This document shows, one piece after another, positions 15,100 through 41,513 of a stretch of 64,000 bases of DNA. Origin of the DNA: Candidatus Woesebacteria bacterium. Lineage in GTDB: Bacteria; Patescibacteriota; Microgenomatia; UBA1400; PJMF01. The position numbers were made by a program, and so were the translations under genes. The notes beneath the pieces were generated by a model that did not search any database, was not told where the DNA came from, and worked only from the letters and a program-made list of their open reading frames with translations. The number at the start of each line of letters is the position of its first letter. Positions within the stretch are counted from its first letter, which is position 1. The stretch covers positions 75 to 64,074 of the forward strand of contig JASFHL010000007.1 in the NCBI GenBank assembly GCA_050123235.1. Direction: 5' to 3'.

Positions 15100-15180
15100 A
15101 GTGATAGTATACAGTTGGTGAAGCTCGGTAGTAAATTGTCTGCTAACTCAAGCTTAGCCAGACCTCGCTTCAACGCTCTA
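15100..15180 (-). repeat. family-A hairpin repeat, copy A1 (truncated), abutting the smpB start codon
   Basis: Contains the core GTTGAAGCGAGGTCTGG...TTTACTACCGAGCTTCACC in minus orientation. Ends 1 nt before the smpB ATG. Confidence 0.7.
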
Positions 15181-15243
15181 AGATTCATCATATAGTAAAT
15201 TAAAATCAATAAATCAAAGGAACATTTAGTAAAATATTAGCTG

Positions 15244-17337
15244 TCACAACTCCATCTCATAGAGCAGTGATCCACTGACAGCAAAAATCTTATTTTTTTC
15301 TTTACTAATCACAAAATCAGTTACGCTCTTCAAGGAAAGGCTTTTCTTTTCACTAAAGTATTTACCATCCTTAGTTAAAGCTACCACTCTAAATTGATTT
15401 GCATCCAAAACATAGAGATATTCTAGTTCTTCGCTAGTAAAGATTTTTATTTTTGAATCAAAAGCATCAACTAAACCTTCGATATTAAATTCCACTTCAC
15501 TACCTTTGGAAAATTTTTTTATTTCTCCAGAATTAGTAGTTAGCCAGATAGAACCATCAATAGTCATTGAATCTATTTCTTCAAACTTAATGTCTTTTTT
15601 AGACACAAACCAACCAATTGCCTGACTCAAACCATCTTCACCTTGGCTGTAGCGATAGAGATTTCTTTTTTCTGGGTTAAGAATATAAAGATAGCTGTTG
15701 AATCTGCCAAAAATATTACCAGCCCTATCTGAGTCTCCTTCCTCTTTCAGAACTGTTATCTTTTTACTGCCTAAATCAATTTGGCGAATACCATTGCCAA
15801 GTAAATAAATTTTATTTTCGCCCAAAACTACATCCACTAATTTATCAGCATCTTCTACATTAAAGACCTCATGTTCTTTGTTATCCAAATTGATAACAAT
15901 AATTTGTTTTTTACCAGTATCCAAAAAGGCTAATTTTTCCTTGTTAATCGCGATTTTGGAACTGACAAAATTAGATTCAATATTTCTTAAGTCAACGAAA
16001 ACAGTCAATTCGTCAAATTCTTGTCTGCCTGATATTTCCTGATAAAAATCTTTAGCGGCTGAAAGTTCTTTTTGGATTTCTTTGAGTGATCGTTTTTTTT
16101 GCTCTTTTGCTTTAGCCAAGTTTTCTAAATTTTCAATAGCAAGAGTTAATTTTTCTCTAGCAGTAATCGGATCTTGCTCTGCAATGTCTTTAGCTTCAGC
16201 AATCATTTGCACAAAGGGATTAATTTCTTCTCTGATAGCATTTAGTTCTTTGTTGACCTTCATCCTCCAGACAACAATTAAAGTCGAGCCAACAATGATA
16301 AAAACTAAGATCGAAAACAGCACTTTAGCGATTTTTTTTGATGAATATTTGCTGACATAAGTTTCTTTGGAAGATAGATTCTGTTTCAGGAAATCACTAC
16401 CCTTTTGTAGAATTTTTTGGCTTAATTTAAGACTTTTAAGAACAGTGTTTTTACTGCCACTTAGGCCGCGTTTAATAAGTACGCTGGCAGATTTAAGAAA
16501 TTTTTTAAATTGAAAATTTGGCCTTTTTTTAGAAATATTGCTAGTTGTTTGAGTAGGGGCAAAGTTATCTATTATTTCTAAATCAGGATCTGCAATGCTT
16601 TCTTCTTGCCAGTCAAGTTCATTTTGTTTTTTTACTTTGTTTTTTTGCTTGAAAATATCATCTGCTGCTTGCTCTAGCACGTTATCAGTATTTAAACTTT
16701 GTTCTAATCTTTCTGCTTCAGTATCAATTTCTAAACTAAAATCTAGATTCTTTGTTTTTTCAACTTTTTCTTCACTTAATTTTTGGTAGACAAAGCTCAG
16801 CGCAGACAATGATGAATTTGCTTGAGCATGGATGGCCGGCACAATTGAGGTAATCACAGTTTCCAGCTCAAACCCTTGATTTAGTTTTTGTTTGATTTCT
16901 TCTAAAAATTTAAATACTTGATGAGTAGTGAGGAGAAGCACATCCTCTTTTTTAAATTCACCTTGGATGATTTTAATTCTATTAGTACTGGAAAGTATCT
17001 TGCCAATTTTATCGCCTCTTTTAAGGGTAATACTACCGTTATATGTGAGAAAGAAGGCCTGTCCTTCTTGAGGAAAAAAAGCTGCTGACAATTGTAATTG
17101 GCAGTTATTATCTCTGAGATTTTTGATAGAACTTAAAAGCAGCTGATGAAGAGCGGCCGCACTAGCATTAGCAGGAGTTTGTTTGAGTTGTTGACTGAAA
17201 TCTTTGCCAATGTTTTTTGCATTTTTTCCAGCTATGGAAAAAGCACAGATCAGGTTGCCAGCCTCATTTGCAGTTATTTGAGACCAACCATTAGCAAGTG
17301 GCAGGCCAATCAGGGGTGTTGACTGCACTCTTGGCAT
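15244..17337 (-). CDS. large membrane-anchored protein: N-terminal cytoplasmic domain, coiled-coil, single TM, C-terminal extracytoplasmic beta-rich domain
   Basis: 697-aa ORF. The TM is 'VLFSILVFIIVGSTLIVVW' and there is an E/K-rich helical region. No catalytic motif recognised. Confidence 0.45.
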   Translation of the reverse strand: MPRVQSTPLIGLPLANGWSQITANEAGNLICAFSIAGKNAKNIGKDFSQQLKQTPANASAAALHQLLLSSIKNLRDNNCQLQLSAAFFPQEGQAFFLTYNGSITLKRGDKIGKILSSTNRIKIIQGEFKKEDVLLLTTHQVFKFLEEIKQKLNQGFELETVITSIVPAIHAQANSSLSALSFVYQKLSEEKVEKTKNLDFSLEIDTEAERLEQSLNTDNVLEQAADDIFKQKNKVKKQNELDWQEESIADPDLEIIDNFAPTQTTSNISKKRPNFQFKKFLKSASVLIKRGLSGSKNTVLKSLKLSQKILQKGSDFLKQNLSSKETYVSKYSSKKIAKVLFSILVFIIVGSTLIVVWRMKVNKELNAIREEINPFVQMIAEAKDIAEQDPITAREKLTLAIENLENLAKAKEQKKRSLKEIQKELSAAKDFYQEISGRQEFDELTVFVDLRNIESNFVSSKIAINKEKLAFLDTGKKQIIVINLDNKEHEVFNVEDADKLVDVVLGENKIYLLGNGIRQIDLGSKKITVLKEEGDSDRAGNIFGRFNSYLYILNPEKRNLYRYSQGEDGLSQAIGWFVSKKDIKFEEIDSMTIDGSIWLTTNSGEIKKFSKGSEVEFNIEGLVDAFDSKIKIFTSEELEYLYVLDANQFRVVALTKDGKYFSEKKSLSLKSVTDFVISKEKNKIFAVSGSLLYEMEL

Positions 17338-17452: not shown

Positions 17453-18541
17453 ATGATCATTTTAAATACAAAAGACACCAGTCAAGCAGAAATAATTGAA
17501 CAAGCGGTAGCTGTTTTAAAAAAAGGCGGTTTAGTGATTTATCCTACAGAGACCGTGTATGGGGCCGGGGTAGACGTCAGCAATCAGGCGGCAGTGAATA
17601 AGTTATTGCAGTACAAGTCACGTCGAGAAGGAAAGCCTTTGTCAGTGGCAGTCACTGATCAAAAAATGGCTGAAAAATATGTAGAGATTAATAAGCAAGC
17701 CAAAAAATTATATAAACAATTTTTACCTGGGCCAATGACAATCATTTCTAAAGGCAAAGATACAGTGGCGGCTGGAGTTGAATCTGAATTTGGAACTTTA
17801 GGAATTAGAATTCCTGATTATGATTTGATTTTGAAAATAGTAGCAAAATTAGGCAGAGGGATTACTGCTACTTCTGCTAATGCCTCTGGTAAAAAAAGAC
17901 CCTATACAGTAGCAGATATTTTAAATAATCTTTCAGCAAAGCAGAAAAACTTGATAGATTTAATTATTGATGCTGGCAAATTAGCGCCTAATCCACCCTC
18001 TACAGTGATTGATACCACTTTATCTACTCCTACTATTTTACGAAAAGGCAAGACTAAGCTTGTTGGTTCTGATGAAAAAAGCACTCAACTTAAATCAGAA
18101 TCAGAAAAGATGACTAAAGAAATTGCCGGTCGAATTATGCTCAAATACTGGGATCGAATTAAAAAAACAGCTTTGATTTTAGGCTTAGATGGTCAATTAG
18201 GAGCTGGTAAAACAATTTTTACCAAAGGTGTGGCTGAATTTCTTAAAATCAAAGAAACTATCAGTTCCCCAACTTATACTTATCTCAATGAATATGACTT
18301 TAAAAGATACCAAACAAAAGGGAAACTCTACCACTTTGACATGTGGAAAGTAGATTCAGAAAAGGAGTTGACTTTGTTTGAGATAGATAAGTTAGTTAGA
18401 CCTAATAATGTCTTGGTGATCGAGTGGTGGGATCAGATTGCTGGCTTTTTAGCTAATAAGAGATATGCAATTATTAAAATAAATATTGATGTATTAGATA
18501 AAGAAAATAGGGAGTTGATAATTACTGAAAAATTTTCATAA
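17453..18541 (+). CDS. fused TsaC (YrdC, L-threonylcarbamoyladenylate synthase) and TsaE (P-loop ATPase) t6A biosynthesis protein
   Basis: N-terminus 'VIYPTETVYGAGVDVSNQAAVNKLLQYKSR' is the YrdC fold. C-terminus has the TsaE motifs 'LGLDGQLGAGKTIFTKG', 'SPTYTYLNEY' and 'YHFDMWKV'. Confidence 0.75.
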   Translation: MIILNTKDTSQAEIIEQAVAVLKKGGLVIYPTETVYGAGVDVSNQAAVNKLLQYKSRREGKPLSVAVTDQKMAEKYVEINKQAKKLYKQFLPGPMTIISKGKDTVAAGVESEFGTLGIRIPDYDLILKIVAKLGRGITATSANASGKKRPYTVADILNNLSAKQKNLIDLIIDAGKLAPNPPSTVIDTTLSTPTILRKGKTKLVGSDEKSTQLKSESEKMTKEIAGRIMLKYWDRIKKTALILGLDGQLGAGKTIFTKGVAEFLKIKETISSPTYTYLNEYDFKRYQTKGKLYHFDMWKVDSEKELTLFEIDKLVRPNNVLVIEWWDQIAGFLANKRYAIIKINIDVLDKENRELIITEKFS

Positions 18542-18614
18542 TTCAGAGAAGCTGCTGATAAGGTCAGATTAGATTAATAAAATATCAACTTATTTAAGTG
18601 ATTTTTAGAAAAAA

Positions 18615-18768
18615 CATTAGTATATATAAATCTTGACCGTTGAAGCGAGGTCTGATTAGGATTGACCTAGATCTTTATATACTACCGAGCTTCACCGAGT
18701 GAGCTTTGTATCTTATAAAACAGAAGAAATATTTCTGCGAACGTGTTCAAGATTTATGTATAGTAATG
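18615..18768 (+). repeat. family-A repeat, copy A2 (about 154 bp, 24-bp imperfect TIRs)
   Basis: TIRs are CATTAGTATATATAAATCTTGACC and GTTCAAGATTTATGTATAGTAATG. Carries the conserved core and the GCGAACG...ATTTAT 3' module. Lies between tsaCE and tsaD. Confidence 0.7.
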
Positions 18769-18819
18769 TTTTGGATGCTGAACTTTACATGAACTCGTCT
18801 GATATTTTATTAATTAATT

Positions 18820-20058
18820 ATGACCAATCTACTACCTCTCATCCTCGCCATCGACACTTCTTGTGATGATACTTCAGTCGCTATTACTCAAGGTCAAGTA
18901 GTCTTGGCCAATGTCATTTCCTCTCAAACTCAGCTACACAAACCTTATGGAGGAGTTTTTCCTACTATAGCTAAGCAAGCTCATAAAGAAAATATTGATG
19001 CAGCTATTAAAATAGCTCTTAAGCGTGCTAGTCTTACAATAGGTAAAATTGATGCTTTTGCGGTAACCATAGGTCCAGGTTTGGCACCAGCTCTGGAAGT
19101 TGGCATTGCTAAAGCAAAAGCTTTAGCCAAATTAGATCAAAAACTTTTAATAGCCATCAACCACACAGAAGGGCATATTTTATCGGTTTTGGCTCAAAGG
19201 AAATCCAGAACTGGCAGGCAAGGTTTGGAGCAAAAAGTCAAAACCACAGCTCGAAAGTCAACAACAGGAGTAAGAAAAACAAATTTATCCCAAGCAAAAA
19301 GCATCCACCCTCTTCCGACAGAAAAATTTCCAGCCCTAGCCATTGTAGTTTCAGGGGGTCACAGTCAATTTATTCTGGTCAAAAATATTGGCGATTATCA
19401 GATTTTAGGTTCCACTATCGATGATGCTGCTGGAGAATGTTTAGACAAAGTAGGCCGAATGCTCAATCTAGGTTATCCTGCTGGGCCAGTAATAGAAGAA
19501 TTTGCCAAAAAAGGCAATGCAAAAAAGTTTGAATTTCCTTTACCAATGACTACTATTAAAAATTTTAATTTAAGTTTTTCTGGTCTTAAAACTTATGCTA
19601 GCAATTTGATTAGGCAATTAGAGGCAGCAGGCAAACTAAACAAACAAGCAATTTATGATATTTCTGCCTCTTTTCAAAGAGCTGTATTTAAACATATTGC
19701 TTATAAATTGGACAAGATTCTTAAAGCAGAAACAAGTCTACTCCAAAGCGAAAAATATTTTCAAGAAATCTGGTTGGGTGGAGGGGTCAGTGCCAATATT
19801 AGTTTAAGAAAAATGATTCGTGAGACAATAAAAAACTATCTTAGTTCTACTGATAAGTCACTTTTAAAATTAGAACAAGATAGAGAAAAATTAATGAGTT
19901 CCCAGAAGCGGAAACTCAGGCTCAAAGTTCCTTTCTCAAAAAAATTATGTAGTGATAATGCTGCTATGATTGGCATAGCTGCTTTTTATAAATATCAACA
20001 AGCTGAATTTGTCGACAAAATAGATCAGTTAGAAAGAAAACCAAGATTCTTAGTTTAG
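18820..20058 (+). CDS. tsaD: tRNA N6-adenosine threonylcarbamoyltransferase TsaD (Kae1/YgjD family) with basic insertion
   Basis: 'ILAIDTSCDDTSVAI' and the metal-binding 'NHTEGH', plus 'VSGGHS' and 'SGGVSAN'. An R/K-rich insert of about 40 aa is absent from canonical TsaD. Confidence 0.8.
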   Translation: MTNLLPLILAIDTSCDDTSVAITQGQVVLANVISSQTQLHKPYGGVFPTIAKQAHKENIDAAIKIALKRASLTIGKIDAFAVTIGPGLAPALEVGIAKAKALAKLDQKLLIAINHTEGHILSVLAQRKSRTGRQGLEQKVKTTARKSTTGVRKTNLSQAKSIHPLPTEKFPALAIVVSGGHSQFILVKNIGDYQILGSTIDDAAGECLDKVGRMLNLGYPAGPVIEEFAKKGNAKKFEFPLPMTTIKNFNLSFSGLKTYASNLIRQLEAAGKLNKQAIYDISASFQRAVFKHIAYKLDKILKAETSLLQSEKYFQEIWLGGGVSANISLRKMIRETIKNYLSSTDKSLLKLEQDREKLMSSQKRKLRLKVPFSKKLCSDNAAMIGIAAFYKYQQAEFVDKIDQLERKPRFLV

Positions 20059-20088: not shown

Positions 20089-20457
20089 TTGCCCTGCTCT
20101 ATGAAATATAGTAAAAGTAAGCATGATCAATCCTTATTATCTCTTACTCAAGAAGTATCTGCTGATGAGGTTAAATTTGATTTATATATTAAAGCTCGAG
20201 AAATTAAACAGATTAATGAGTATTTAGAAAGGATTATGCTCTTTAGTAAAAAAAGAAAGCAAGCATGGCTTGGTGAAAACGAAGAAATGATTAATCAGCT
20301 TTTGGATTCTATAATGGAAGACTCAATGATGGTCATGGATGGTTTGGAAGTAGATAGTGAATCAATGGAGCTAAGTGTTGAATTAATGATTAACCTCAGA
20401 AATGCAGTCTATACTCTTAGAAATTTAATTTATTCAAAACAGAGGATTAAACATTGA
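20089..20457 (+). CDS. hypothetical protein
   Basis: 122-aa acidic helical ORF whose stop overlaps the start of the CHASE2-cyclase gene. Confidence 0.35.
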   Translation: MPCSMKYSKSKHDQSLLSLTQEVSADEVKFDLYIKAREIKQINEYLERIMLFSKKRKQAWLGENEEMINQLLDSIMEDSMMVMDGLEVDSESMELSVELMINLRNAVYTLRNLIYSKQRIKH

Positions 20458-22073
20458 CAATGTCTCGTTATGGTCATTTAAAAATCATTTTCTATTTGCT
20501 AACTACTTTTTTTGTATTTGTTATTTTGCTTCTTTTTTTTCAACCTTTTTATAATTTAAATAATAAAATTAATGATTTATTTTATAGCTCTACAAATCAG
20601 AAATCAGAAATTGTAATTGTAGCTATCGATGATTTATCCTTGCAAACAGTACAAGCTTGGCCATGGTCAGCTGAAAAGCAAGCTGAGTTAATTAATATTA
20701 TCAAAGAGCAGCATCCCAAATTGATTGCCTATGCAGCAAGCTATCCTAGCCCAGATGTAGAAGAACAAGTAGTTTTAAGTAAATTGAATGAAATTGATAA
20801 TCTAGTGATGAGCAAGGTAAATAATTTTTATTTAGGACCAAAGGGTCATCTAGATTTAGAAAAATCCTCAGATGGAAAAGTAAGACAGATTTTAACTGAA
20901 AAAAACCTATTTCCTTCATTTTCACTTGTCAGTGCCGAAGTTTTGAACTATACCATGACTGAAACACATTTAAATATCAATTATCGATTTAAAACTGGCA
21001 GCCTATTACAATTATCTGCTCAAGATATTTTTTCAGGCAGGAATTTAATTAAACTTAAAGATAAAATTGTTTTGATTGATTTAGTGAATGCTGATTCCAG
21101 TATGGATGTAGAAACGCCTTTAGGTTTAATGAAGCCAATTGAGGTTCAGGCAAATGCAATTGATACAGTTTTGAGTTTGAGAGCCTTACGCAAATTACCA
21201 AAAAGTCAAGAAACAATTATTGCTCTTTTTTTAGCAATTTTACCTCTTTTTCTTGCTAAATTTATTCGCATTAAACAATGGCTTGGTTCAGCAATTTTCC
21301 TTTTATTAGGGATTGTTTTAATTGCTTTCCTAGCTTTTAGATTCTTTTATATTATTACACCTGTTTTTTATTGGTTACTGCTAATTTTATTTGGAGTTTT
21401 ATTAGCTATTTTTATTAAGTGGAAATTAAAAAATCTAACTCAAGTTCTTCTGAAAAAAATTTTTGGCAACACTGTTTCTCCAGAAGTGCTAAGCACTTTG
21501 TTAAAGAATCCAGAAAAAGTATCTTTGCAAGGTGAGAAACTTGAGTTAACTGTTTTGTTTGTAAGAATCAAAAATTTCAGTGATTTTGTAGAAAAAAATG
21601 ATGCTAAAACAACAGTGTCTAAATTAAAGAATTTTTTAGAAACTTGCACAGACATTGTTATTAGTCACCAAGGTACAATTGATAAATACTCAAGAAATAC
21701 AATAATAGCTTTTTGGGGAGCGCCACTATCAGATAAGCAACAGGCTAGTAAGGCTTGTGTGACTGCTTTAGAGATTCAAGATCGTATTGGGGAAGAAAGT
21801 CAACTTGAGCTAAGTATTGGCATCAGCTATGGGCTAGCAACTGTTGCTAGTTTGGAACTTGAAGGTTTAGATTATTCAGCCATTGGTGAAACAGTGGATC
21901 AAGCAATTATGCTTGAATCTGCTACTCAGGAACTAAAACAGACAATGCTTGTTTCTGAAAGCGTAGTTAAGAAGAACAAAGAAGAAAATAGTGATTTTAG
22001 ATTTACAAAACTTAAGGCAATTAAAGTGGAAGGAAGTAGAAAGTCTGTTAAAGCTTATGGATTAGAGGGATAG
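20454..22073 (+). CDS. CHASE2 sensor domain - class III nucleotidyl cyclase (degenerate motifs)
   Basis: N-terminal TM, then the CHASE2 signature 'VIVAIDDLSLQ...WPWS', then three TM helices. C-terminal cyclase-like 'LTVLFVRIKNFSDF...IAFWGAPL'. Confidence 0.55.
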   Translation: MTMSRYGHLKIIFYLLTTFFVFVILLLFFQPFYNLNNKINDLFYSSTNQKSEIVIVAIDDLSLQTVQAWPWSAEKQAELINIIKEQHPKLIAYAASYPSPDVEEQVVLSKLNEIDNLVMSKVNNFYLGPKGHLDLEKSSDGKVRQILTEKNLFPSFSLVSAEVLNYTMTETHLNINYRFKTGSLLQLSAQDIFSGRNLIKLKDKIVLIDLVNADSSMDVETPLGLMKPIEVQANAIDTVLSLRALRKLPKSQETIIALFLAILPLFLAKFIRIKQWLGSAIFLLLGIVLIAFLAFRFFYIITPVFYWLLLILFGVLLAIFIKWKLKNLTQVLLKKIFGNTVSPEVLSTLLKNPEKVSLQGEKLELTVLFVRIKNFSDFVEKNDAKTTVSKLKNFLETCTDIVISHQGTIDKYSRNTIIAFWGAPLSDKQQASKACVTALEIQDRIGEESQLELSIGISYGLATVASLELEGLDYSAIGETVDQAIMLESATQELKQTMLVSESVVKKNKEENSDFRFTKLKAIKVEGSRKSVKAYGLEG

Positions 22074-22109: not shown

Positions 22110-22263
22110 CTTAATATTTAATTAATTTGAGAGTCGTTCGCGGCAGCATTTCGTTTATTTTTAAGATGCAAGGCTCACTGGTGAAGCTCGGCAGTAAATT
22201 GATTACTTGATCAAGACCGAACCAGACCTCGCTTCAACACTCTCAAATTAATTAAATATTAAG
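22110..22263 (-). repeat. family-A repeat, copy A3 (154 bp, 24-bp perfect TIRs CTTAATATTTAATTAATTTGAGAG)
   Basis: Perfect inverted repeat at 22110-22133 and 22240-22263. The conserved core and the GCGAACGACTC module lie between them. Confidence 0.75.
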
Positions 22264-22415: not shown

Positions 22416-22724
22416 ATGTCAGCTCAAATCAAAGTTTCTCAACTCAAACCCCTGTCAGGGTATATTTTAGTAGAACCAGCTAAATCAGAAACTAAAACCG
22501 CTGCTGGGATTTATTTACCAGAAAATGATAGTGACAAACCCCAACATGGTAAAGTTTTAGCTTGTGGTGCTTCAGTTTGGGAAAGTGGAGTCAAAGAAAT
22601 CAAATGCCCTGTTAAAAAAGGCGATCAGGTGATCTACAAAAAATGGGGTGGTAATGATGTCAAAATTGATGATGTAGAATATCAATTTTTAAAATTTGAC
22701 GATGTCTTAGCAGTTATTAAATAA
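22416..22724 (+). CDS. groES: co-chaperonin GroES
   Basis: 'LKPLSGYILVEP...GKVLACG' with about 100 aa, immediately upstream of groEL. Confidence 0.9.
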   Translation: MSAQIKVSQLKPLSGYILVEPAKSETKTAAGIYLPENDSDKPQHGKVLACGASVWESGVKEIKCPVKKGDQVIYKKWGGNDVKIDDVEYQFLKFDDVLAVIK

Positions 22725-24389
<1,665 letters not shown>

Positions 24390-25054: not shown

Positions 25055-25141
25055 ACAATAAATGTAAGTCTTTAGAGCGCGAAGCTTCACTTCTTAGATT
25101 AGTGGAACTTTACTAGGATTGTTTTAAAATGTAGCAGAGGT

Positions 25142-25215
25142 GGGATTTGAACCCACGACCTTCGGTTTATGAATCCGATGCTCTAACCAACTGAGCTACC
25201 CTGCCAAGTAAAACG
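25142..25215 (-). tRNA. tRNA with CAU anticodon (Met elongator or Ile2-lysidine type)
   Basis: Reverse complement reads GGCAGGGTAGCTCAGTTGGTTAGAGCA-TCGGA-TTCATAA-ACCGA-AGGTC-GTGGGTTCAAATCCCAC-CTCTGC. D and T arms are canonical and the anticodon loop is TT-CAT-AA. G1:C72 means it is not an initiator. CCA is not encoded. Confidence 0.8.
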
Positions 25216-25357
25216 AGTTAGAATTTTTATAAGTCGCTTATTAGCTTAACTGCAAACATGCAGATCGCTTAGATTAAATTCAACGTCCTTGATTATATCA
25301 GACTACTTGGGGTATAATAAACCCCTCTTTATATCTCTTTAGGAAAATATAAAAGAC

Positions 25358-25425
25358 GCGCGGGATAGTGTACGGTGCACGTGAGGCTCATAATCTTACA
25401 GGCTAGGTTCGACTCCTAGTCCCGC
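25358..25425 (+). other. tRNA-like sequence with CAU anticodon loop (possible second tRNA, or an att-site tRNA remnant)
   Basis: CGCGGGA...TCCCGCA acceptor with a C1:A72 mismatch. T arm CTAGG-TTCGACT-CCTAG. Anticodon arm TGAGG-CTCATAA-TCTTA. The D loop is short (5 nt). It abuts or overlaps the 3' end of the serine recombinase gene. Confidence 0.35.
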
Positions 25426-27176
25426 AACAATGAGGGAATGAGAGGTTGTAGATAGGTTAATTTGTCCTCTACATCCATCAATTTTCCAGGTTCGACCGAA
25501 ATACCTAAGTCTTTTGCTTCTTGCTTGCATTTTTCTATCATCCAAAATGGGTTATCCCGATTTATCAACACTTTTTTATTATGTAGCTTTAGGTTCGACC
25601 CAAGCATCTGAAGTATTTGAGTCTTAGTTTTAACATCACCTTGAGCAAACCAATAACGGGCATAGCAGGCAAACTCGAAAGTTTTTTTTGATATTTCAAT
25701 CCAATCATATTGCCTTTGGTCCGTTGTTTGCATATCATTTTTTACTGTCTCAATTTCTTTTTTAAGTTTACTGAGTTCTGCCTCATAAGCTTCTTTCTCT
25801 TCTTCACTGGATTCTTCATATAGATCAGTAAAGCGGTGCTTTGTCATCCTTCTAAGCCTGGATTTGAGCTTCTCGTAGTTGGTAGTATTTCGTTTAGTAG
25901 CATCCTGGTCCTGGTCCACTTCTTTGTCATTTAATTCACTTATGTGATTAATAGCCCAATCTTTGAAGTCAGGATCAATCTCGAATTTTTTTAACTCATT
26001 GTCAATTTGTTCTTCAAGCTTTCCTATTTCTAAATATCCTTGAGAACAATTTTTATTGACCTTTTTGGTGCAGTGATAGTAGATGTAATGGAGAATAGTG
26101 GGGTTTTTCATCAATTCTATTTTCAAACCACACTTAATACACCTATCTCTTTTCCTTGTTTTAGCAAATTTTTTGCTACATTTTGGACAAATTATTTGCC
26201 ATTTTTCCTCAGCAGTGATAAAACCACCACATTCACCACAAGTCATAATCCCTTTATAGGGAAAATCATATTTTTTTTGTATCGAGCGGCTTTTTTTACC
26301 TAGTCTAATCTGGATAATATCCCATTCATCTTTAGTAAACATTTTTGGGTATTTATGTTCACTTTCTTGGGTTACGCCTTCGATCTTTCTACTCATAACT
26401 CCATAATAAAAAGGGTCAGATAAAAGTCTGTAATAAGTTGATCTTGAAAGCGGTCCATCTCCTTGTTTTCTTTGAGGTAGGGTCCTGTATCCCATATCAT
26501 TATTGAGCCAGTTTAAACTTTCTAAAACGGTCATTTCACCGCTAATTATTTTTTTTCCAGCCTGTTGTAGCAAAGAAAATCTTTTTTGATCTACTTTAAC
26601 ATCGCGTTTTTTGGTAAAAGGATGAGTAAAATTAATAAATCCTTGCTTAGCTGGACCACCCCATTCTTTATTCTCAAAAAATTTATACTTATTTCCACTA
26701 TGAACATGGTCCGAAAGCTTAGTTGATTCATACTGTGATTGACTCAAGGCAAACTGGAGCAGCAAAATACCTTCGGCACTGTTATCAAATGTATAAGTGG
26801 CAAACTTAATATCTAGAATCTTTTTATCTGCTATGAGTTGCACGATTTTTCCTGCCTCAGTGGGGTTCCTTGAGAGTCTATTAGGGTGAAATACAATTAA
26901 GCCTGTTACTTTGCCTGCCTCAATTAAGTTAATCAATTTATTAAACTCGGGACGGTTGTCTGGTTTATAAGCACTTTTGCTTTCTGATAGATGATAACTT
27001 CTCTTATATTCTTTTTTTGGGAAACGTTTTGCTAGTTCTTGTCTCTGGCGAGGTATTGAGACATTCTGCTTATTAGATTTTTCATCTGATGAACGCCTGC
27101 TATATTCTGCCCAGATAATTTTATTTGGTGTGATGTTTATTCTTGGCATATAAAAACCCTCTCTGGGTGGACTCAA
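25416..27176 (-). CDS. large serine recombinase (phage-integrase type)
   Basis: N-terminal resolvase catalytic motif 'AEYSRRSSDEKSNKQ' (nucleophile Ser). Followed by a recombinase domain and a zinc ribbon 'CGECGG...CPKCSKKF', then a coiled-coil C-terminus. Confidence 0.8.
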   Translation of the reverse strand: MSPPREGFYMPRINITPNKIIWAEYSRRSSDEKSNKQNVSIPRQRQELAKRFPKKEYKRSYHLSESKSAYKPDNRPEFNKLINLIEAGKVTGLIVFHPNRLSRNPTEAGKIVQLIADKKILDIKFATYTFDNSAEGILLLQFALSQSQYESTKLSDHVHSGNKYKFFENKEWGGPAKQGFINFTHPFTKKRDVKVDQKRFSLLQQAGKKIISGEMTVLESLNWLNNDMGYRTLPQRKQGDGPLSRSTYYRLLSDPFYYGVMSRKIEGVTQESEHKYPKMFTKDEWDIIQIRLGKKSRSIQKKYDFPYKGIMTCGECGGFITAEEKWQIICPKCSKKFAKTRKRDRCIKCGLKIELMKNPTILHYIYYHCTKKVNKNCSQGYLEIGKLEEQIDNELKKFEIDPDFKDWAINHISELNDKEVDQDQDATKRNTTNYEKLKSRLRRMTKHRFTDLYEESSEEEKEAYEAELSKLKKEIETVKNDMQTTDQRQYDWIEISKKTFEFACYARYWFAQGDVKTKTQILQMLGSNLKLHNKKVLINRDNPFWMIEKCKQEAKDLGISVEPGKLMDVEDKLTYLQPLIPSLLRD

Positions 27177-27250
27177 ATCAAACTAATGACTTGTCCCAAA
27201 GAGGGTATTTATAGTCACTAGTTTAAGATTGAGTCCATAATCATTTTATA

Positions 27251-27439
27251 CTAATTTTCATTACTAAGTTGATTTAAAATATCTTGGTCCTCAATTGGGA
27301 TTGGTTTATAAATTAGAGCGAATCGCTTTAATTCCTTTAAAGCCATAACTTGAGCTTCTTCATAATCAAGCCATACACCGCATTTCTTTTGGTAAAGTTT
27401 TTGAAAGCTGGTGATGGCTTCGTGGCTTAGTTGCATCAC
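27251..27439 (-). CDS. hypothetical small protein
   Basis: 62-aa ORF in the same orientation as the recombinase block. Confidence 0.3.
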   Translation of the reverse strand: MMQLSHEAITSFQKLYQKKCGVWLDYEEAQVMALKELKRFALIYKPIPIEDQDILNQLSNEN

Positions 27440-28092
27440 AGAATAGTCCTTTCATCTGCTGTAATGTGTTCATCAAGCCATTTCATGTCTTCTGGTGGTA
27501 AATACTGGAAACCTTCTTCCTTATGAATGCGTTGGTAATCAGCCATAGTTCTTTGGTTTCCAACGGGGAGTGTGGTAACCACAGGGCTATTAACTTTAGA
27601 GTTAACCTTAGAGGAATTTAGAGTTCTAGGAGAATCAATCTCGAGGCAATTACGAACGGTTTGTTCAAAAGATTGAACTTTTGCTTCAGTTATTTGAAAA
27701 TTAGGTGCAATATTTTGAATAATTTGTTCAAACGATTGATTTAGTTCTTTTTGCTGAAATTGACTAGCTTGACCACCCCATTTTTTAGTTGTGGCTATAT
27801 ATCTTTCAGCATTGAAAATCTCATAAGTCTGTGGTTCTTGTGTAGGAATTAAAATACCTAAGGTTGTTAACTTAGTTATTTTTGTCCTAATTGAATTTGT
27901 GGAGCTATACCCTAAACAGGAGGCAAACTGTTTAAAATCTATTTTTACCTTTTTATATTGGCTATTTCTTGAATCAAACCCCATTTGATCAAGGCATAAC
28001 TCAAAAATAATAAATTCCTCTCTAGTTAAAATTTCGTGTTTTACCAGGAGAAAGCGGTTGCGATGAGAGGGGCGATAAGCATTGAAATTCAT
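27436..28092 (-). CDS. hypothetical protein with N-terminal winged-helix-like region (element replication/regulation candidate)
   Basis: 218 aa. No catalytic motif. Overlapping stop/start couplings with its neighbours suggest an operon. Confidence 0.35.
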   Translation of the reverse strand: MNFNAYRPSHRNRFLLVKHEILTREEFIIFELCLDQMGFDSRNSQYKKVKIDFKQFASCLGYSSTNSIRTKITKLTTLGILIPTQEPQTYEIFNAERYIATTKKWGGQASQFQQKELNQSFEQIIQNIAPNFQITEAKVQSFEQTVRNCLEIDSPRTLNSSKVNSKVNSPVVTTLPVGNQRTMADYQRIHKEEGFQYLPPEDMKWLDEHITADERTIL

Positions 28093-28358
28093 TACACCCC
28101 TTCATTAAATGCCTCCCAGGCAATCATGAAGTCAGTTAAGGTTCTATAATTACCTTCATTAATTGCTTGAACTGTTTCACCAAAATTAGTTAAAATTTTT
28201 CCATAATTGATTTTTAGGTAAAAAAAATCGACTTCTGAGATTTTTGCTTGCTTAACTTTATAAAGAATTCGTCTTCTTTTTTTGGAAAAGTAGTGCTTAA
28301 CCCTTCCATCTTTAAAAAAGATTTTTAGTTGATATCTCTTGGGTTTTTGAATTTTCAT
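28092..28358 (-). CDS. hypothetical small basic protein
   Basis: 88 aa, basic, first gene of the leftward block. Confidence 0.3.
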   Translation of the reverse strand: MKIQKPKRYQLKIFFKDGRVKHYFSKKRRRILYKVKQAKISEVDFFYLKINYGKILTNFGETVQAINEGNYRTLTDFMIAWEAFNEGV

Positions 28359-28383
28359 AAAAAAACTCCTTAGTAACTCCAGG

Positions 28384-28465
28384 TACGGAGTGTGACCTAG
28401 AGTTGCTAAAGAGTTTTTATCACTCCGTTTTTAGGCAAAAAAAAACCACGCAAAAAATTGCGTGG
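28384..28465. terminator. divergent-block hairpins
   Basis: CGGAGTG...CACTCCG+TTTTT on the plus strand. On the minus strand, a 9-nt A-run followed by CCACGCA-aaaaat-TGCGTGG gives a hairpin with a downstream T-run. Confidence 0.4.
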
Positions 28466-28482
28466 ATGTATTTTTATCCTAG

Positions 28483-28830
28483 TTGAAAGCGATTATAACA
28501 TATAGTTTTTTTTACAAAAGTAGTATATTCTCTTTAGAGAAAGATAGTTTAGCTATGTATAACAAACCAATGTCCCGTCAAGCTCTTTATTCCAAGGTTA
28601 GTAGTTATACTCCAGAAATCATTGATCGTCTTTTAGAGCTGAGTCGATCTTCCAATGAGAATGTTGCATTAGGAGCTTGCAAAACTTTACTTAGCAAATC
28701 AATTCCAGACTTAAAGGCTTTAAATGCAGCTGGTTTTGAAAATTATCAGCATGTGCGGAATGTTATCTATTTGCCTATAGAAAAAAAATGTTTGATCAAT
28801 AATGGGACGACTAACTTACCAGACTCATAG
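28483..28830 (+). CDS. hypothetical protein
   Basis: 115 aa. A more likely start is the internal Met 'MYNKPMSRQ'. Confidence 0.3.
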   Translation: MKAIITYSFFYKSSIFSLEKDSLAMYNKPMSRQALYSKVSSYTPEIIDRLLELSRSSNENVALGACKTLLSKSIPDLKALNAAGFENYQHVRNVIYLPIEKKCLINNGTTNLPDS

Positions 28831-28883
28831 AGGGGGGAGTGGTATAATGTATAATAGATTAAGTAAAATTAATCTTTGGACTT

Positions 28884-30548
28884 ATGCCTTCAAATAAAAC
28901 CTCTAAAACTAAGGTAAAAACGAAAAAACGTAAAACTTCAACTAAAACTCGCAAAAAAAAGTCTATTTCAAAAGTAAAAAAGGGAACTAAAAAGACTTCT
29001 ATTGCATCATTTTGCCCTGATTGTGGTACAAAACTTACTAAGACTGCTAAATTTTGTTCAGGCTGTGGTGAGAAGATAGCAAGTATCACAAGTAATAGTG
29101 AAAAGAGTAGAAATAAGCAAACTTTTTCATTGTTTAAAACTGTAATTCACTACTTTGAACGGATAAAACAAATTGATCGGAAAGTTGCTATAGCTATCGT
29201 GGTTATGATAGGCATACTATGCATTGGCATAGGCCATAAGTTAGGTGTTACAGATAGAATCATAATTGCAACGAGACAATGTTCAATAACCAATTCATCA
29301 GAAAAAGCACTTAACTCAGTTGTAAAAATAACAACTGATATGAATAGTGGTAGTGGTTTTTTTGTTGACGAGACTCATATTGTTACGAATAACCATGTTA
29401 TGGAGGGTGTTAAAGAAGCTAATATCACGCTTGGAACAGGTAAACTGACGAAAGCTAAGATTATTGGTTCAGATGAAGAAGCCGATATTGCTGTTCTAGA
29501 AATTGATGATGAAATAAAACCAGAATATTTGAAATGGGCTGAAGTAAAAGAAAAAGTTGCATCGGATATTGTAGCTATAGGTTTTCCTTTAAGTGACGAA
29601 GAATCGCTTAAGGGTGATGCTACTGTTACCAAAGGGACTATTTCTGCATATCGTGATGGTCTATATGGTATTCAGTATATACAAACTGATACGAGCATAA
29701 ATCCCGGCAATAGCGGTGGACCATTGCTTAATGAATGTGGTGAAGTGATCGGAGTAAATGATTTATATTTTAATCCCATAGGAAGTGCAGATCCTATTTT
29801 TTATGCCATCAACACAAAGTCAGCTAAGAAGGCAGTTGAAAAAATTCTAAAAGATCCTTCATATTCTGAACCTGTAGGCACATTGCCAAGATTTGAGGAT
29901 AACATAGAGCCTACTGATGTTGTCATGGCTTATTATCAGGGTTTGACAGAGGGCAGCTACATGATGTCGTATCAACTATTTACTATTGGCCGTCAAAAGG
30001 AATGGAAACCTGAGGAATGGCAAAATTTGTTTACAAATGTTCTGTCTATTGAGGTAAAAAATATCCAACAAATATCTACTGATCCAGTAAAAGTAAAAGC
30101 TGAAATGGATTTATATACAACTGATGGAGTTAATCTTTTAGTTAAGACAGCAGATTCGATTTGGACATTAAAGTATTCTCTTGGAAGGCTGGCACTTGAT
30201 GATGTTGAAATAGAATATGGTGAAGAGAAAGCGATATTTAATCAAGATTACGAAGATGCAATTAGGTTTAACAAAAGTTTAGCCGATACAGTTTATCCGG
30301 CTATTTTAAATAAAGACATGTCCTATTATCCTCAGCAACAGGTTGTAATTATTAAAGCTTTGATTGAAGAAAATACTGAAATTATCAACAGGCTTTTTCA
30401 AAAGGTAACCAATGGTGAGCCTTTGGATGAGTCGGAATTTTATGATAATGATCTTTTTGTTTCCAATCATGATCAAATATTAGACATAAACAAGGAATTT
30501 GAAAGCATTGATTTACAGAATTATTATTTAAATTATTACTCTGAGTAG
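28884..30548 (+). CDS. membrane-anchored trypsin-like (S1/HtrA-fold) serine protease with N-terminal zinc ribbon and unknown C-terminal domain
   Basis: Polybasic N-terminus, then 'CPDCGTKLTKTAKFCSGCGEKI', then TM 'VAIAIVVMIGILCIGI'. Catalytic triad contexts 'THIVTNNHV', 'DIAVLEID' and 'GNSGGPLLN'. The C-terminal ~220-aa domain matches nothing I recognise. Confidence 0.65.
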   Translation: MPSNKTSKTKVKTKKRKTSTKTRKKKSISKVKKGTKKTSIASFCPDCGTKLTKTAKFCSGCGEKIASITSNSEKSRNKQTFSLFKTVIHYFERIKQIDRKVAIAIVVMIGILCIGIGHKLGVTDRIIIATRQCSITNSSEKALNSVVKITTDMNSGSGFFVDETHIVTNNHVMEGVKEANITLGTGKLTKAKIIGSDEEADIAVLEIDDEIKPEYLKWAEVKEKVASDIVAIGFPLSDEESLKGDATVTKGTISAYRDGLYGIQYIQTDTSINPGNSGGPLLNECGEVIGVNDLYFNPIGSADPIFYAINTKSAKKAVEKILKDPSYSEPVGTLPRFEDNIEPTDVVMAYYQGLTEGSYMMSYQLFTIGRQKEWKPEEWQNLFTNVLSIEVKNIQQISTDPVKVKAEMDLYTTDGVNLLVKTADSIWTLKYSLGRLALDDVEIEYGEEKAIFNQDYEDAIRFNKSLADTVYPAILNKDMSYYPQQQVVIIKALIEENTEIINRLFQKVTNGEPLDESEFYDNDLFVSNHDQILDINKEFESIDLQNYYLNYYSE

Positions 30549-30673
30549 TTAATATTATTTTGCTGTAGCTGCAAGTAAGTCTTCTTGACTATTTTTATCT
30601 TTTATTTATTTTTATTAGGTTAATAGATGATTATAGATTGTGTATTTTTTTGATGCATTAAGCTATACTAACA

Positions 30674-30889
30674 ATGTGGGAAGAAAAACAAGATTTAAGC
30701 AAATTTGTATTTGAATTACCAGGTAGATATTATGCTCAAGCAGATTGCTTAACTAGAGGTAGGTATAAAATAACTATATCTGTTTATGGTAAAAATGCGA
30801 AAAAAATAACCAGAAATTTTTTTATATCATGGTCGGGTAATTGGAAAGACAATACAAATGATATGTTTAAAGAGTTAGTTATTAAGTGA
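30674..30889 (+). CDS. hypothetical small protein
   Basis: 71-aa ORF. Confidence 0.25.
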   Translation: MWEEKQDLSKFVFELPGRYYAQADCLTRGRYKITISVYGKNAKKITRNFFISWSGNWKDNTNDMFKELVIK

Positions 30890-30930
30890 GAGGATATCTA
30901 TCATGATAATTTGGTATACTCTATTTTAGA

Positions 30931-31437
30931 ATGCTTAGCTTTTTTGGTACCAAATCCCCTCCAAAGTTTACTCCTAAAGATACTAAGGATACAAAAAAAT
31001 TGATGAAGTTTGTTAAGTGGTTTGTTAACAATACCTCTAATGGAAAACTTTTGATTGATGAAGTGTCACGGTCTATTTTTGCTAGTGGTATTAGACCTGT
31101 TTCTGGTACAAGGAATACACCAAATTTGCCTCCTGAATTGGATACTGATCCGTATTATTGGTTTTTAGAGAGAATTAGATTAAGCCTAATAATGATATCT
31201 GAGAGAGAAGAAAACGACGTTAATGGAGTTATTTCCTTGATGGAGGAAGAGCTTGCTAGACATACTGCTGAGCTTAAAAGTTTATGCGAACAATATGGTG
31301 TAGTGTTTGAAGGTACGGATGTTTTAGCTGAAATTGAAAAAATTAGTAATGATATTGATAGGAAATGGTTTAAAAGTAAGTTGTTAGATTTTCGTTTTTC
31401 AATTCTAGAGTTAGATATCATCAAAACACTTTATTAG
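30931..31437 (+). CDS. hypothetical protein
   Basis: 168-aa ORF, helical and acidic. Confidence 0.35.
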   Translation: MLSFFGTKSPPKFTPKDTKDTKKLMKFVKWFVNNTSNGKLLIDEVSRSIFASGIRPVSGTRNTPNLPPELDTDPYYWFLERIRLSLIMISEREENDVNGVISLMEEELARHTAELKSLCEQYGVVFEGTDVLAEIEKISNDIDRKWFKSKLLDFRFSILELDIIKTLY

Positions 31438-31549
31438 TGATGGTTTTATAGCTAGCTTTTACAATTACGATTTAACTTATAGTGACGTAATTTACTGCTT
31501 TTTTTGAGGTAAAATAGGTTCTAACTTTCTCCCACATTGTCAACAATAG

Positions 31550-31575
31550 AAAAAAGACCCACAAGTGGGTCTTTT
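31550..31575. terminator. bidirectional Rho-independent terminator between convergent genes
   Basis: AAAAAGACCCAC-aa-GTGGGTCTTTT, with a perfect 10-bp stem flanked by A and T runs. Confidence 0.65.
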
Positions 31576-31616
31576 AAGTATTCTTCCAAAACACTTTTTT
31601 ATCTAAGAACATTTTC

Positions 31617-32252
31617 TCACTTCCTAGTTATTTTAAAAGATGTACTTTGCTCCTTTTTTAAAATATGATCTCCTCTTTCTCTTAATAAAAGTCTGTGACT
31701 GGCTACATCAACTAATGGAGAACTAATCAGCCAGTCAGTATAAAAATTGGGAATTCTTTCTGATAGTACGCGATAGAGAGCTGTTAGATCATCTTTACTA
31801 ATTGAGCAGGCGATAGCTACAAAACAGCCACTTTTTTCTTTTAAACGTGATGTTGCCGTAACTAGTAAAGAAACAATTTTTTCTAAATCAGGCAAGTTAT
31901 GCAATTCATGAGCTTTCTTTGTTTTGAACTCTTTTTCAGTTAAAAATCTACCCCAGATAGGAGGAGCTTTCATAATAATATAATCAAAATAATGAAGAGG
32001 ATAATACTCTCCCAGCTTATAAGCATCACCAATGATATGATTTGGTCCATTGAATGTTCCTAGATCTACTGAATGATACTCACCACCACGCTCTCTGATA
32101 GGGAGCATCATCGATGATTGAGCATCTCCTGAAAAAAGTTCAAGTATGCATTTACCTCTTAGATCTTCTGGTAATTGAAGCCATTCTTTGACTGCTTTTT
32201 CTGCCACAGGTTCAGGATCTGGATACCACTTTATTCTTGGATCTTCTGACAT
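31617..32252 (-). CDS. SAM-dependent methyltransferase-like protein (amino-MTase motif order I then IV, atypical 'APPIW')
   Basis: 'ILELFSGDAQSS' is an FxGxG-like motif I. About 55 aa later, 'DYIIMKAPPIW' resembles (D/N/S)PP(Y/F/W) with Ala in the first position. Confidence 0.3.
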   Translation of the reverse strand: MSEDPRIKWYPDPEPVAEKAVKEWLQLPEDLRGKCILELFSGDAQSSMMLPIRERGGEYHSVDLGTFNGPNHIIGDAYKLGEYYPLHYFDYIIMKAPPIWGRFLTEKEFKTKKAHELHNLPDLEKIVSLLVTATSRLKEKSGCFVAIACSISKDDLTALYRVLSERIPNFYTDWLISSPLVDVASHRLLLRERGDHILKKEQSTSFKITRK

Positions 32253-32418
32253 AAAGATAGTTTATTACTAAGTCATCGCTTTTATCAAATGATGATTGGG
32301 ATCTTAGTATTGTTCAAAGTTTGGTCTTTGAGATAAGATTATTTAGAAAGATTTTAATCCATTTATCAAGTCAAACTTAGAAATAAACCTTAAGATAATC
32401 ATACTATATTTGGGATTT

Positions 32419-32775
32419 TTAATCTCCAAATAACAACTTTTTCCATTCCTGCCAAGGACTTTCTATCTCTATTGCGATTTTTTTATTCTCGTTTTTTGTC
32501 TCAGTAGGAATTTGGATAATATATTCTCCTGGACGTTGCATCAAAAGATCATTTCTTTGAATTTTTTCTTTTGTTAGAGGATAGTCTGCTTCTGCAATCT
32601 TATTTTCTAATTCTTGGATGTTTTCAGATTGTTTTTTGACTTCGTTTTGTAAAATTTCTACATTTTTCTGTGATTGATGGCTAATATTTTCAGTTTTCTT
32701 GAGGGAAAGAATAAAAGATAAGCTAAGAATGCTAAAAGCAATAAGAATAATTGGTTGTGATAGAAAACGATTCAT
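32419..32775 (-). CDS. membrane-anchored coiled-coil protein
   Basis: N-terminal TM followed by an E/K-rich heptad region. Confidence 0.35.
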   Translation of the reverse strand: MNRFLSQPIILIAFSILSLSFILSLKKTENISHQSQKNVEILQNEVKKQSENIQELENKIAEADYPLTKEKIQRNDLLMQRPGEYIIQIPTETKNENKKIAIEIESPWQEWKKLLFGD

Positions 32776-32919
32776 AATATATAATACTATTTGCTAAAAA
32801 GCCTTATTTATGATACTATAAGATAGTCGAGAAATAGATTTTTCGTTATCTGGTCACGAAATAACTGTTTTTAGACTAATTTTGTATTTAATTGTAATAA
32901 TATCTAAGATAAACAAAAT

Positions 32920-41355: not shown

Positions 41356-41449
41356 GATATCAAAATTTTTTTCTTAAAAGAAGTATTAATTACTAAATTA
41401 TTACTTTTTTAAATTTAAGGAGCTGGAAGTGAGTGGAGAGGACATTATT

Positions 41450-41513
41450 GTACACAAATCTTGATCGTTGAAGCGAGGTTGGGCTTATTTGTATTATAGA
41501 TTAGTATTTTAAT
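41450..41513 (+). repeat. family-A repeat fragment A5 (left TIR and 5' core only)
   Basis: ACAAATCTTGATCGTTGAAGCGAGG matches the left end of A2. It is truncated where B1 begins. Confidence 0.55.

Follow-up and report, generated by a model that had tools for sequence, protein, structure and literature searches.

The N6-threonylcarbamoyladenosine modification at position 37 of tRNA (t6A37) depends, in characterised bacterial systems, on TsaC, the source of the labile threonylcarbamoyl-adenylate (TC-AMP), and on TsaB, TsaD and TsaE, where TsaE binds only the TsaB-TsaD heterodimer (PMC9654439; PMC6009658). The SPT(F/Y)T loop of TsaE enters the TsaD active site, with ATP sandwiched between both proteins (PMC6009658), and TsaB gives conserved residues and a C-terminal helix that are needed to hold the anticodon loop (PMC13276492). 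According to PMC10484737, it is not known by which route TC-AMP arrives at TsaD, proximity being one proposal. Minimal systems possessing TsaD only are described from mitochondria and two Mycoplasma species, and the only two bacteria reported without TsaB also lack TsaE, according to a survey from 2015 (PMC4615747). Here, those systems are compared with the t6A37 locus of a 64-kb stretch of Candidatus Woesebacteria DNA (64,000 nucleotides of contig JASFHL010000007.1, hereafter the window), where TsaC and TsaE are fused in a single protein encoded upstream of tsaD.

Regarding gene arrangement, the Mycobacterium tuberculosis operon reads alr-tsaE-tsaB-rimI-tsaD-groES-groEL1 (PMC5335608). As for the candidate phyla radiation (CPR), the supplementary gene table for Southlakia epibionticum ML1 (PMC10633639) records TsaB (130 aa) beside TsaE (196 aa) and a HIT gene at one locus, and TsaC (196 aa) beside TsaD at a different one. 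This TsaB consists of the N-terminal domain only, with no Pfam match given in the supplement, and tsaB, tsaC, tsaD and tsaE are all scored there as non-essential by transposon sequencing. Because the Southlakia TsaB has only 130 aa, CPR bacteria can carry a small, easily missed TsaB. That gene table was the only result when the literature was searched for t6A genes together with Patescibacteria, and the literature searched held no mention of a TsaC-TsaE fusion or of t6A genes in Microgenomates. Precomputed Pfam annotations do show the domain pair, which is thus known to databases but unremarked.

The TsaC-TsaE Fusion Protein

The window contains the core locus for t6A37 tRNA modification in a bacterium of the Microgenomates-type CPR, lying in low-GC DNA (approximately 28-38% GC along the 64 kb). 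At the level of sequence, TsaC, TsaE and TsaD form a complete and intact set arranged as a two-gene unit. An earlier note, made from the sequence alone, had described one 362-aa open reading frame (ORF) bearing both TsaC and TsaE signatures, and its coordinates and content were found as described there (Table 1). The database entry MGD9129626.1, from a Candidatus Woesebacteria metagenome-assembled genome (MAG), is 100% identical to this ORF.

The N-terminal half matches the Pfam family Sua5_yciO_yrdC (PF01300) along residues 21-199 (E-value of 8.6e-47; 159.3 bits, cut-off 25.1) and the NCBIfam equivalog TIGR00057 with 184.5 bits (cut-off 123.2). The C-terminal half matches the Pfam family TsaE (PF02367) along residues 217-352 (E-value of 7.3e-27; 94.3 bits, cut-off 26.6) and the equivalog TIGR00150 with 81.5 bits (cut-off 60.1). 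The E-values of both domains are far beyond chance. The KxR...SxN tetrad is the mark that separates TsaC from its paralogue YciO (PMC4615747). Its residues K55, R57, S141 and N143 are invariant in an alignment of 32 homologues, and among the 76 distinct fusion loci analysed after duplicate removal, the KxR pattern is present in 74 and the SAN pattern in all of them. The TsaE motifs are likewise invariant in the 32 aligned homologues, namely the Walker A (G247-T254), the loop S272-P-T-Y, H294-x-D-x-W-K and E324-W; at the fusion loci, the Walker A and the SPTY loop are kept in 76/76 and EW in 73/76. The pattern HxDx[WY][KR] is found in 75 of the 76, ending in WK in 38 and in YR in only one, and reads H-F-D-M-W-K in the window (residues 294-299, positions 18332-18349), while the TsaE of the unfused relative P0377 keeps YR. 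The canonical form is presumably HxDxYR, as in E. coli TsaE, and the WK variant may be the signature of an altered partner interface.

The AlphaFold2 model of the fusion, built on the 32-sequence alignment, has two confident domains, with a predicted local distance difference test (pLDDT) mostly above 90, joined by a stretch of low confidence, and a predicted template modelling score (pTM) of 0.59. The model suggests beads on a flexible string, having a disordered tether of about 20 aa and no fixed TsaC-TsaE interface. Among the 32 aligned sequences, the length of this linker is between about 10 and about 60 aa and its sequence is not conserved, and the distance from PSTVID to the Walker A is 53-68 aa in the 55 distinct fusion loci where both motifs were found by pattern. 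In Foldseek, the N-terminal half retrieved YrdC, YciO and the N-terminal domain of Sua5, and the C-terminal half the TsaE proteins HI0065 of Haemophilus influenzae (1HTW), with a target-normalised TM of 0.80, and that of Thermotoga maritima in the TsaB2D2E2 complex (6N9A, chain E), with 0.76. From sequence and model, both halves are predicted to fold independently, and both keep their catalytic and partner-contacting motifs.

With the whole chain, the top Foldseek matches are Sua5/TsaC2 proteins. However, a SUA5 domain gave no Pfam match in the 362-aa ORF at E-values up to 0.01, and the fusion is not of the two-domain Sua5/TsaC2 type, because its C-terminal half is TsaE by sequence and by fold. 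Public records name it only as L-threonylcarbamoyladenylate synthase, probably because it imitates the Sua5/TsaC2 layout with another C-terminal module. As a consequence of this TsaC-only naming, genome surveys will wrongly score these CPR lineages as lacking TsaE.

Conservation and Distribution of the Fusion

Both Pfam domains are present in all of the 120 best relatives found among 5.8 billion proteins, with 347-402 aa and 55-67% identity, which were drawn from NCBI, JGI, ENA and Logan assemblies. A JGI contig of 115,926 bp and an independent Logan assembly each carry an identical ORF. In a metagenome scan by pattern, 584 of the first 600 among the matches listed encode a relative, and the species-representative genomes added eight loci, being seven fusions and one TsaC-only relative. 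When the TsaE half alone was searched exhaustively with HMMER against 1.84 billion representatives of 50%-identity clusters, 15,146 relatives were obtained, and the best 150 of these comprise about 31 full-length fusions, several fusion fragments and otherwise stand-alone TsaEs. The possibility of TsaE being fused to other partners in near relatives, such as TsaB, was discarded, as all long matches were TsaC-TsaE proteins with long linkers.

An assembly error or a frameshift joining two adjacent genes is thus a vanishingly improbable origin for this ORF, and was ruled out by the conservation data: the frame is continuous in hundreds of assemblies from four sources, one of them an independent assembly of the identical ORF, both domains accompany each other in every one of the best relatives, and the motifs are nearly always kept in the 76 distinct loci. 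It had been reasoned in the earlier note that a linker lacking conserved sequence in relatives would speak against a true fusion. The linker is indeed variable and disordered, as tethers usually are, but the argument drawn from it fails, since the architecture itself is conserved.

The source names of the carriers (Woesebacteria, Pacebacteria, Collierbacteria, 'Microgenomates bacterium 39_7' and Paceibacterota) point to Microgenomates-type lineages, and the MAG titles of some relatives, for instance 'Gammaproteobacteria', are implausible given the common gene order. By these sequence comparisons, the fusion is an old architecture that has been widely inherited within this section of the CPR. 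Two relatives (L095, JGI 3300042592; L099, JGI 3300037315) possess a stand-alone tsaE of 175 and 180 aa, respectively, directly upstream of tsaD, and L095 has the same groEL/groES/c2 neighbourhood as the fusion loci. They likely represent the pre-fusion state, in which tsaC had yet to join the tsaE-tsaD pair.

Some individual relatives depart from the common pattern. The loci L074 (9243-9851, minus strand) and L082 (590-1198, minus strand) carry a second, TsaC-only gene of 202 aa, divergent from the fusion, which represents a YciO-like paralogue or else a spare TsaC. In L079 and L081, the fusion is seen by tblastn with no intact ORF under genetic code 11, which may be due to stop-codon reassignment (code 25) or to frameshifted genes. 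In addition, the 233-aa protein P0397 combines the first ~70 residues of TsaD with a full TsaE domain and is probably an assembly or frameshift artefact.

TsaD and Its Basic Insertion

The TsaD encoded downstream reaches 317.5 bits against TIGR03723 (cut-off 296.1), the match being split into stretches by insertions, and its H115, H119, D379, GGVFP, D201-D202 and FSGLK, which comprise the metal ligands (two His and one Asp) and the motifs contacting tRNA and ATP, are invariant in 30 homologues. Its AlphaFold2 model has a confident core (pTM 0.84), with residues 133-163 below a pLDDT of 50, and its target-normalised TM in Foldseek is 0.90 to the E. coli and Salmonella TsaD, compared to 0.72-0.75 to Qri7. 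By both lines, the core is intact and of the bacterial type, and the model is nearer to the heterodimer type than to Qri7.

The basic insert of the earlier note is also present, as a lysine/arginine (K/R)-rich loop expansion of 38 aa: the interval between HxxxH and the SGGH strand has 57 residues, compared to 19 in E. coli TsaD, and its core, AQRKSRTGRQGLEQKVKTTARKSTTGVRKTNLSQAKSIHPLPTEKF, contains 12 K/R and 2 D/E. The same interval ranges from 20 to 61 residues, without sequence conservation, among 51 distinct TsaDs, counting that of the window with those of the loci retrieved, and is one of three hypervariable expansion sites in the 30-homologue alignment, the others lying near residues 304-317 and 341-367. 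In the T. maritima TsaD, the metal-binding His109 and His113 closely precede Phe116, whose main chain, three residues past the second of these His, contacts the ATP held by TsaE (PMC6009658). By analogy, the insert would emerge about 10 residues past the Phe116-equivalent, near the mouth of the active site, where the basic loop may contribute weakly and non-specifically to the binding of tRNA or TsaE. The data do not support a conserved functional module; the insert is a lineage-variable expansion, predicted to be disordered, and, because it stands at a hypervariable CPR expansion site, it is a lineage habit.

Searches for TsaB

The evidence on TsaB comprises the 64-kb window, approximately 10 kb to its left, approximately 3 kb to its right and approximately 1 Mb around the 76 fusion loci. 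As the earlier note had remarked, there is no TsaB nearby: none was found in the window by phmmer with E. coli TsaB and with TsaD, by Pfam on every ORF of at least 98 aa, by hhalign of four family-less ORFs of 168-244 aa, by a 3-sequence TsaB hidden Markov model (HMM), by a 19-sequence TsaB HMM on six-frame ORFs of at least 45 aa (HMMs that had no CPR TsaB as a positive control) or by a scan for the motif GPG[SGAT][FLYWM]T. To the left, the precomputed Pfam gene table, which holds no DNA, lists no PF00814 gene, and to the right there are S15, PNPase and one further ORF, none of them TsaB. Around the fusion loci of the relatives no TsaB was detected, whether full-length, mini or N-domain-only, and the unfused tsaE-tsaD pairs of L095 and L099 have no adjoining tsaB either. 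Two viral-contig scans with TsaB alignments returned nothing, and a synthetic low-GC TsaB query retrieved only TsaBs from large genomes (several on contigs of 5-6 Mb) or short fragments.

Several candidates were considered and rejected. The extra TsaB-HMM matches at the loci of relatives were all TsaD N-termini cut by contig ends, and P0125, the single short match to the synthetic query, is a frameshifted tsaB adjoining rimI in a non-CPR organism. As hidden substitutes, c23 was discarded as ribosomal protein L25/Ctc, c19 as a HIT protein and the small ORFs downstream of tsaD as toxin-antitoxin pairs, as was c2, the small protein encoded after tsaD, which has no GPGSFTG-like motif and tracks the groES operon, not tsaD.

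The clean tsaE-tsaD junction, at the place where other phyla have tsaB-rimI, is the expected remnant of a deletion. That this genome truly lacks TsaB is nevertheless given somewhat less than even odds. The earlier note had gone further, suggesting that the fusion may make up for an absent TsaB; neither this nor such a role of the basic insert is supported. The local absence of tsaB is not tied to the fusion, because unfused relatives show the same tsaE-tsaD adjacency without tsaB; the absence itself covers the window and the flanks named above; the 130-aa TsaB in the Southlakia gene table indicates that the CPR is not TsaB-less as a group; and the insert, of 20-61 residues, has no conserved sequence and is predicted to be disordered.

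Proposed Role of the Fusion and Alternative Explanations

With a probability of roughly 0.6, the protein is considered a genuine Rosetta-stone fusion that would tether TC-AMP synthesis to the TsaD-docking ATPase, TC-AMP then being delivered by proximity. In known bacteria, ATP-bound TsaE docks at the entrance of the TsaD active site, into which its SPT(F/Y)T loop reaches, and the hydrolysis of ATP resets TsaD so that a further turnover can follow. With TsaE docked there, the fused TsaC would hold the labile TC-AMP source within a few nanometres of TsaD at this reset step, and TsaD would be reloaded by proximity instead of free diffusion. The fusion would also fix a 1:1 stoichiometry of TsaC and TsaE. 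The coupling of TC-AMP synthesis to the ATPase, as suggested in the earlier note, is thus plausible. As no separate tsaE was seen in the Pfam gene tables and gene clusters of the fusion loci, the fused domain is the only TsaE found there.

Some points weigh against this mechanism. The absence of a predicted fixed interface between TsaC and TsaE, at a pTM of 0.59, means that channelling would occur by tethering only. In known systems, TsaBD cannot bind TsaE and tRNA at the same time, and its TsaD active site is partly unfolded by TsaE (PMC6009658), so that the delivery of TC-AMP with TsaE docked is not obviously productive. Moreover, the fusion is not required, because close relatives use an unfused tsaE and Southlakia, by its gene table, keeps tsaC and tsaE apart. 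The docking partner is also not fully defined, as the known TsaE needs TsaB-TsaD and no tsaB was found near the fusion loci.

The chief alternative is that neighbouring genes of one pathway merged neutrally in a streamlined CPR genome, bringing only co-expression and equal dosage, with the domains working as when separate, which is possible but falls short of probable. A linker that is disordered, variable in length and unconserved, the lack of a predicted interdomain interface, the unfused tsaE adjoining tsaD in L095 and L099 and the different loci of tsaC and tsaE in the Southlakia gene table are all in its favour, as are the many loop expansions tolerated in CPR TsaDs and fusions, suggesting relaxed constraints. 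However, the architecture is kept at 44-67% identity in hundreds of independent assemblies, implying selection against re-splitting, and a tether to the TsaD-docking subunit would be expected to help in the delivery of TC-AMP, which is labile and whose delivery is an open problem (PMC10484737). Far less credible is an action of the TsaE-like domain in cis on TsaC, in place of a SUA5 domain and not as a TsaD-directed ATPase. It is based on the likeness of the layout (TsaC domain, linker and an alpha/beta domain of ~150 aa) to Sua5/TsaC2, which also leads the whole-chain Foldseek matches, and on the public name, simply threonylcarbamoyl-AMP synthase. Still, SUA5 has no match, the C-terminal half is above the TsaE equivalog cut-off and has the TsaE fold, and no packing between the two domains is predicted. 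In addition, the SPTY loop, the Walker A and EW are kept, and in the T. maritima complex it is the SPT(F/Y)T loop that touches TsaD and the P-loop that binds the shared ATP (PMC6009658).

It is also conceivable, although unlikely, that TsaB was lost, with TsaD acting as a homodimer or monomer and the fusion and/or the basic insert replacing TsaB in TsaD activation and in the grip of the anticodon loop. This would agree with the negative searches in the window, in its flanks, at the 76 loci and beside the unfused pairs, with a gene order tsaE-tsaD-...-groES-groEL that resembles the actinobacterial alr-tsaE-tsaB-rimI-tsaD-groES-groEL1 minus tsaB-rimI (PMC5335608), with a saccharibacterial TsaB already reduced to 130 aa in the gene table of PMC10633639, with the TsaD-only systems of mitochondria and two Mycoplasma species (PMC4615747) and with the basic character of the window TsaD insert, which would emerge near the active-site mouth. 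On the other hand, TsaE binds only the TsaB-TsaD heterodimer in every characterised system, and the two known TsaB-less bacteria are also devoid of TsaE (PMC4615747), which is strongly conserved here. The insert, besides being unconserved and predicted to be disordered over its 20-61 aa, cannot be a general substitute for TsaB, because some fusion-bearing relatives have almost none (20-23 aa). Furthermore, the fusion is uncorrelated with the local absence of tsaB, and the TsaD model is nearer to the heterodimer type (TM of 0.90) than to Qri7 (~0.72-0.75). A broader version, possible but short of probable, would extend this to the Microgenomates-type CPR: TsaC-TsaE and TsaD only, without TsaB, where TsaE would dock on a TsaD homodimer or monomer, as no known TsaE does, TC-AMP would be handed over directly and the disordered basic loops would share the anticodon-loop grip of TsaB.

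Returning to delivery by tethering, a natural and widely conserved fusion is Rosetta-stone evidence for TsaC working close to the transfer complex, and constitutes a ready-made construct for channelling tests. Should TsaB be truly absent, the locus would represent a t6A system of a new minimal kind in bacteria, intermediate between TsaBDE and Qri7-only, challenging the rule that TsaE recognises only TsaB-TsaD heterodimers.

Gene Context and Other Features of the Window

The distance to tsaD was counted in 58 distinct fusion loci with at least 600 bp downstream. The tsaD start lies at most 300 bp downstream of the fusion in 46 of them, frequently with stop/start overlap (e.g., L003), and at most 3 kb away in six more; for the other six, the 0.7-9.9 kb of downstream sequence contained no called tsaD, and at L060, one of these, the contig end cuts a TsaD N-terminus shortly after the fusion. 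The spacer is 278 bp in the window, compared to usually -55 to +87 bp in relatives, due to the insertion of one copy of an intergenic repeat, as the earlier note had placed a repeat between both genes.

This repeat family has approximately 90-170 nt per copy, is intergenic and possesses the conserved boxes CGTTGAAGCGAGGTCTG ... ACTACCGAGCTTCACC ... CTGCGAACGTGT. There are six copies in the window (18614-18766, 43096-43238, 15112-15198, 22179-22262, 41442-41688 and 50782-50948), adjoining tsaD, dnaK, smpB, groES, hrcA and the gene at 51003, of which 15112-15198 is on the opposite strand and 22179-22262 in the opposite orientation. As the orientation to the downstream gene is not constant, it looks like a miniature inverted-repeat transposable element or a repetitive extragenic palindrome rather than a leader. 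A scan of the repeat against Rfam gave no family, and a promoter and terminator scan of the t6A locus gave nothing above chance.

The fusion/tsaD pair usually adjoins the string c2, yidC, band-7, groES and groEL, and GroES and GroEL are neighbours of the fusion in most loci. The gene c2 adjoins the pair in 36 loci and, across its 40-member cluster, always comes first in the yidC/band7/groES/groEL string; its products of ~110-140 aa have no Pfam match and might regulate the chaperone operon or serve as its cofactor. A HIT gene flanks the fusion in L071, L077, L085 and L087. In the window, a CHASE2 sensor-adenylate/guanylate cyclase fusion (20454-22073, plus strand), whose start overlaps the c2 stop, is located between c2 and groES, a position where it is not seen in the relatives examined. 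On the other side, c13 (15244-17337, minus strand) encodes 697 aa with no Pfam match; 11 loci show it in synteny with the fusion/tsaD pair, and several relatives have it downstream of tsaD.

Table 1. Features of the t6A37 locus and of the possible mobile element, in window positions
Feature	Positions	Strand	Remarks
tsaC-tsaE fusion gene	17453-18541	+	362 aa; NCBI MGD9129626.1; Pfam and NCBIfam matches to both domains
TsaC (YrdC-type) domain	17453-18019	+	Residues 1-189; PF01300, TIGR00057; K55/R57/S141/N143 tetrad
Flexible linker	18020-18073	+	Residues 190-207; AlphaFold2 pLDDT <50
TsaE P-loop ATPase domain	18074-18538	+	Residues 208-362; PF02367, TIGR00150
Intergenic-repeat copy in fusion-tsaD spacer	18614-18766	.	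Repeat families D3, D11, I2, I17 and alignment
tsaD	18820-20058	+	412 aa; NCBI MGD9129627.1; TIGR03723
K/R-rich loop expansion of TsaD	19195-19320	+	Residues ~126-167
c2, small conserved protein	20089-20457	+	122 aa; syntenic neighbour; 40-member cluster
groES-groEL	22416-24389	+	Conserved synteny context
tRNA genes	25132-25205 and 25359-25427	- and +	Start of possible mobile element
Large serine recombinase	25416-27176		In possible mobile element
Weak Rep3 WH1 match	27436-28092		In possible mobile element; followed by several family-less ORFs
Tyrosine integrase	32920-33789		In possible mobile element

Elsewhere in the window, the region 25132-33789 is possibly an integrated mobile element (Table 1). 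Between 46555 and 57216, there are five large ORFs (521-725 aa) with no Pfam match at E-values up to 1e-5, and the direct repeats D4 and D5 within this run suggest paralogous genes. Two other genes break the run, a family-less ORF of 244 aa (48126-48860) and one for a family-2 glycosyltransferase (54359-55090), and a YfhO-like membrane protein comes after it.

Comparison with Known Systems

The bacterial TsaC and TsaBDE proteins of E. coli and T. maritima belong to the same three families as those of the window, having all signature motifs in TsaC (KxR/SxN), TsaE (Walker A, SPTY and EW) and TsaD (HxxxH, D, GGVxP and FSGLK). Besides these similarities, TsaC and TsaE are one polypeptide here, and tsaB and rimI are outside the cluster and were not found nearby. 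HxDxWK is present in half of the fusions where the canonical TsaE has HxDxYR, and three hypervariable expansion sites distinguish the CPR TsaD from the canonical bacterial one. As in the window, tsaE is upstream of tsaD and near groES-groEL in Actinobacteria and Firmicutes, and the order is similar to that of the M. tuberculosis operon (PMC5335608) without tsaB-rimI.

Southlakia epibionticum ML1, from the same radiation, shares with these loci, according to its gene table, the adjacency of tsaD to tsaC, a HIT gene by tsaE and a reduced accessory machinery; nonetheless, its TsaC (196 aa), TsaE (196 aa) and TsaB (130 aa) are separate genes, compared to the fused TsaC-TsaE and no TsaB nearby in the window. 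The Qri7/TsaD-only systems (mitochondria, Mycoplasma haemofelis and M. suis) have a possible absence of TsaB in common with the window (PMC4615747); however, they are also without TsaE, whereas the window keeps a conserved TsaE and a TsaD nearer to the heterodimer type.

Sua5/TsaC2 is like the fusion in its N-terminal TsaC domain, flexible linker, C-terminal alpha/beta domain, length of about 350 aa and public name, differing in the C-terminal domain, which in the fusion is a TsaE P-loop ATPase instead of SUA5. Other fusions of the t6A pathway, namely the archaeal Kae1-Bud32, the TsaC-HemK of M. genitalium, TsaB-RimI, the viral TsaN (TsaD-TsaC-SUA5-TcdA) and TobZ/HypF (YrdC-like and Kae1-like), are likewise Rosetta-stone fusions of successive steps. 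Kae1-Bud32, similarly to TsaC-TsaE, links the transferase cycle to an ATPase. Meanwhile, TobZ and HypF tie adenylate synthesis to transfer, whereas TsaC-TsaE ties the adenylate synthase to the regulatory ATPase and not to the transferase.

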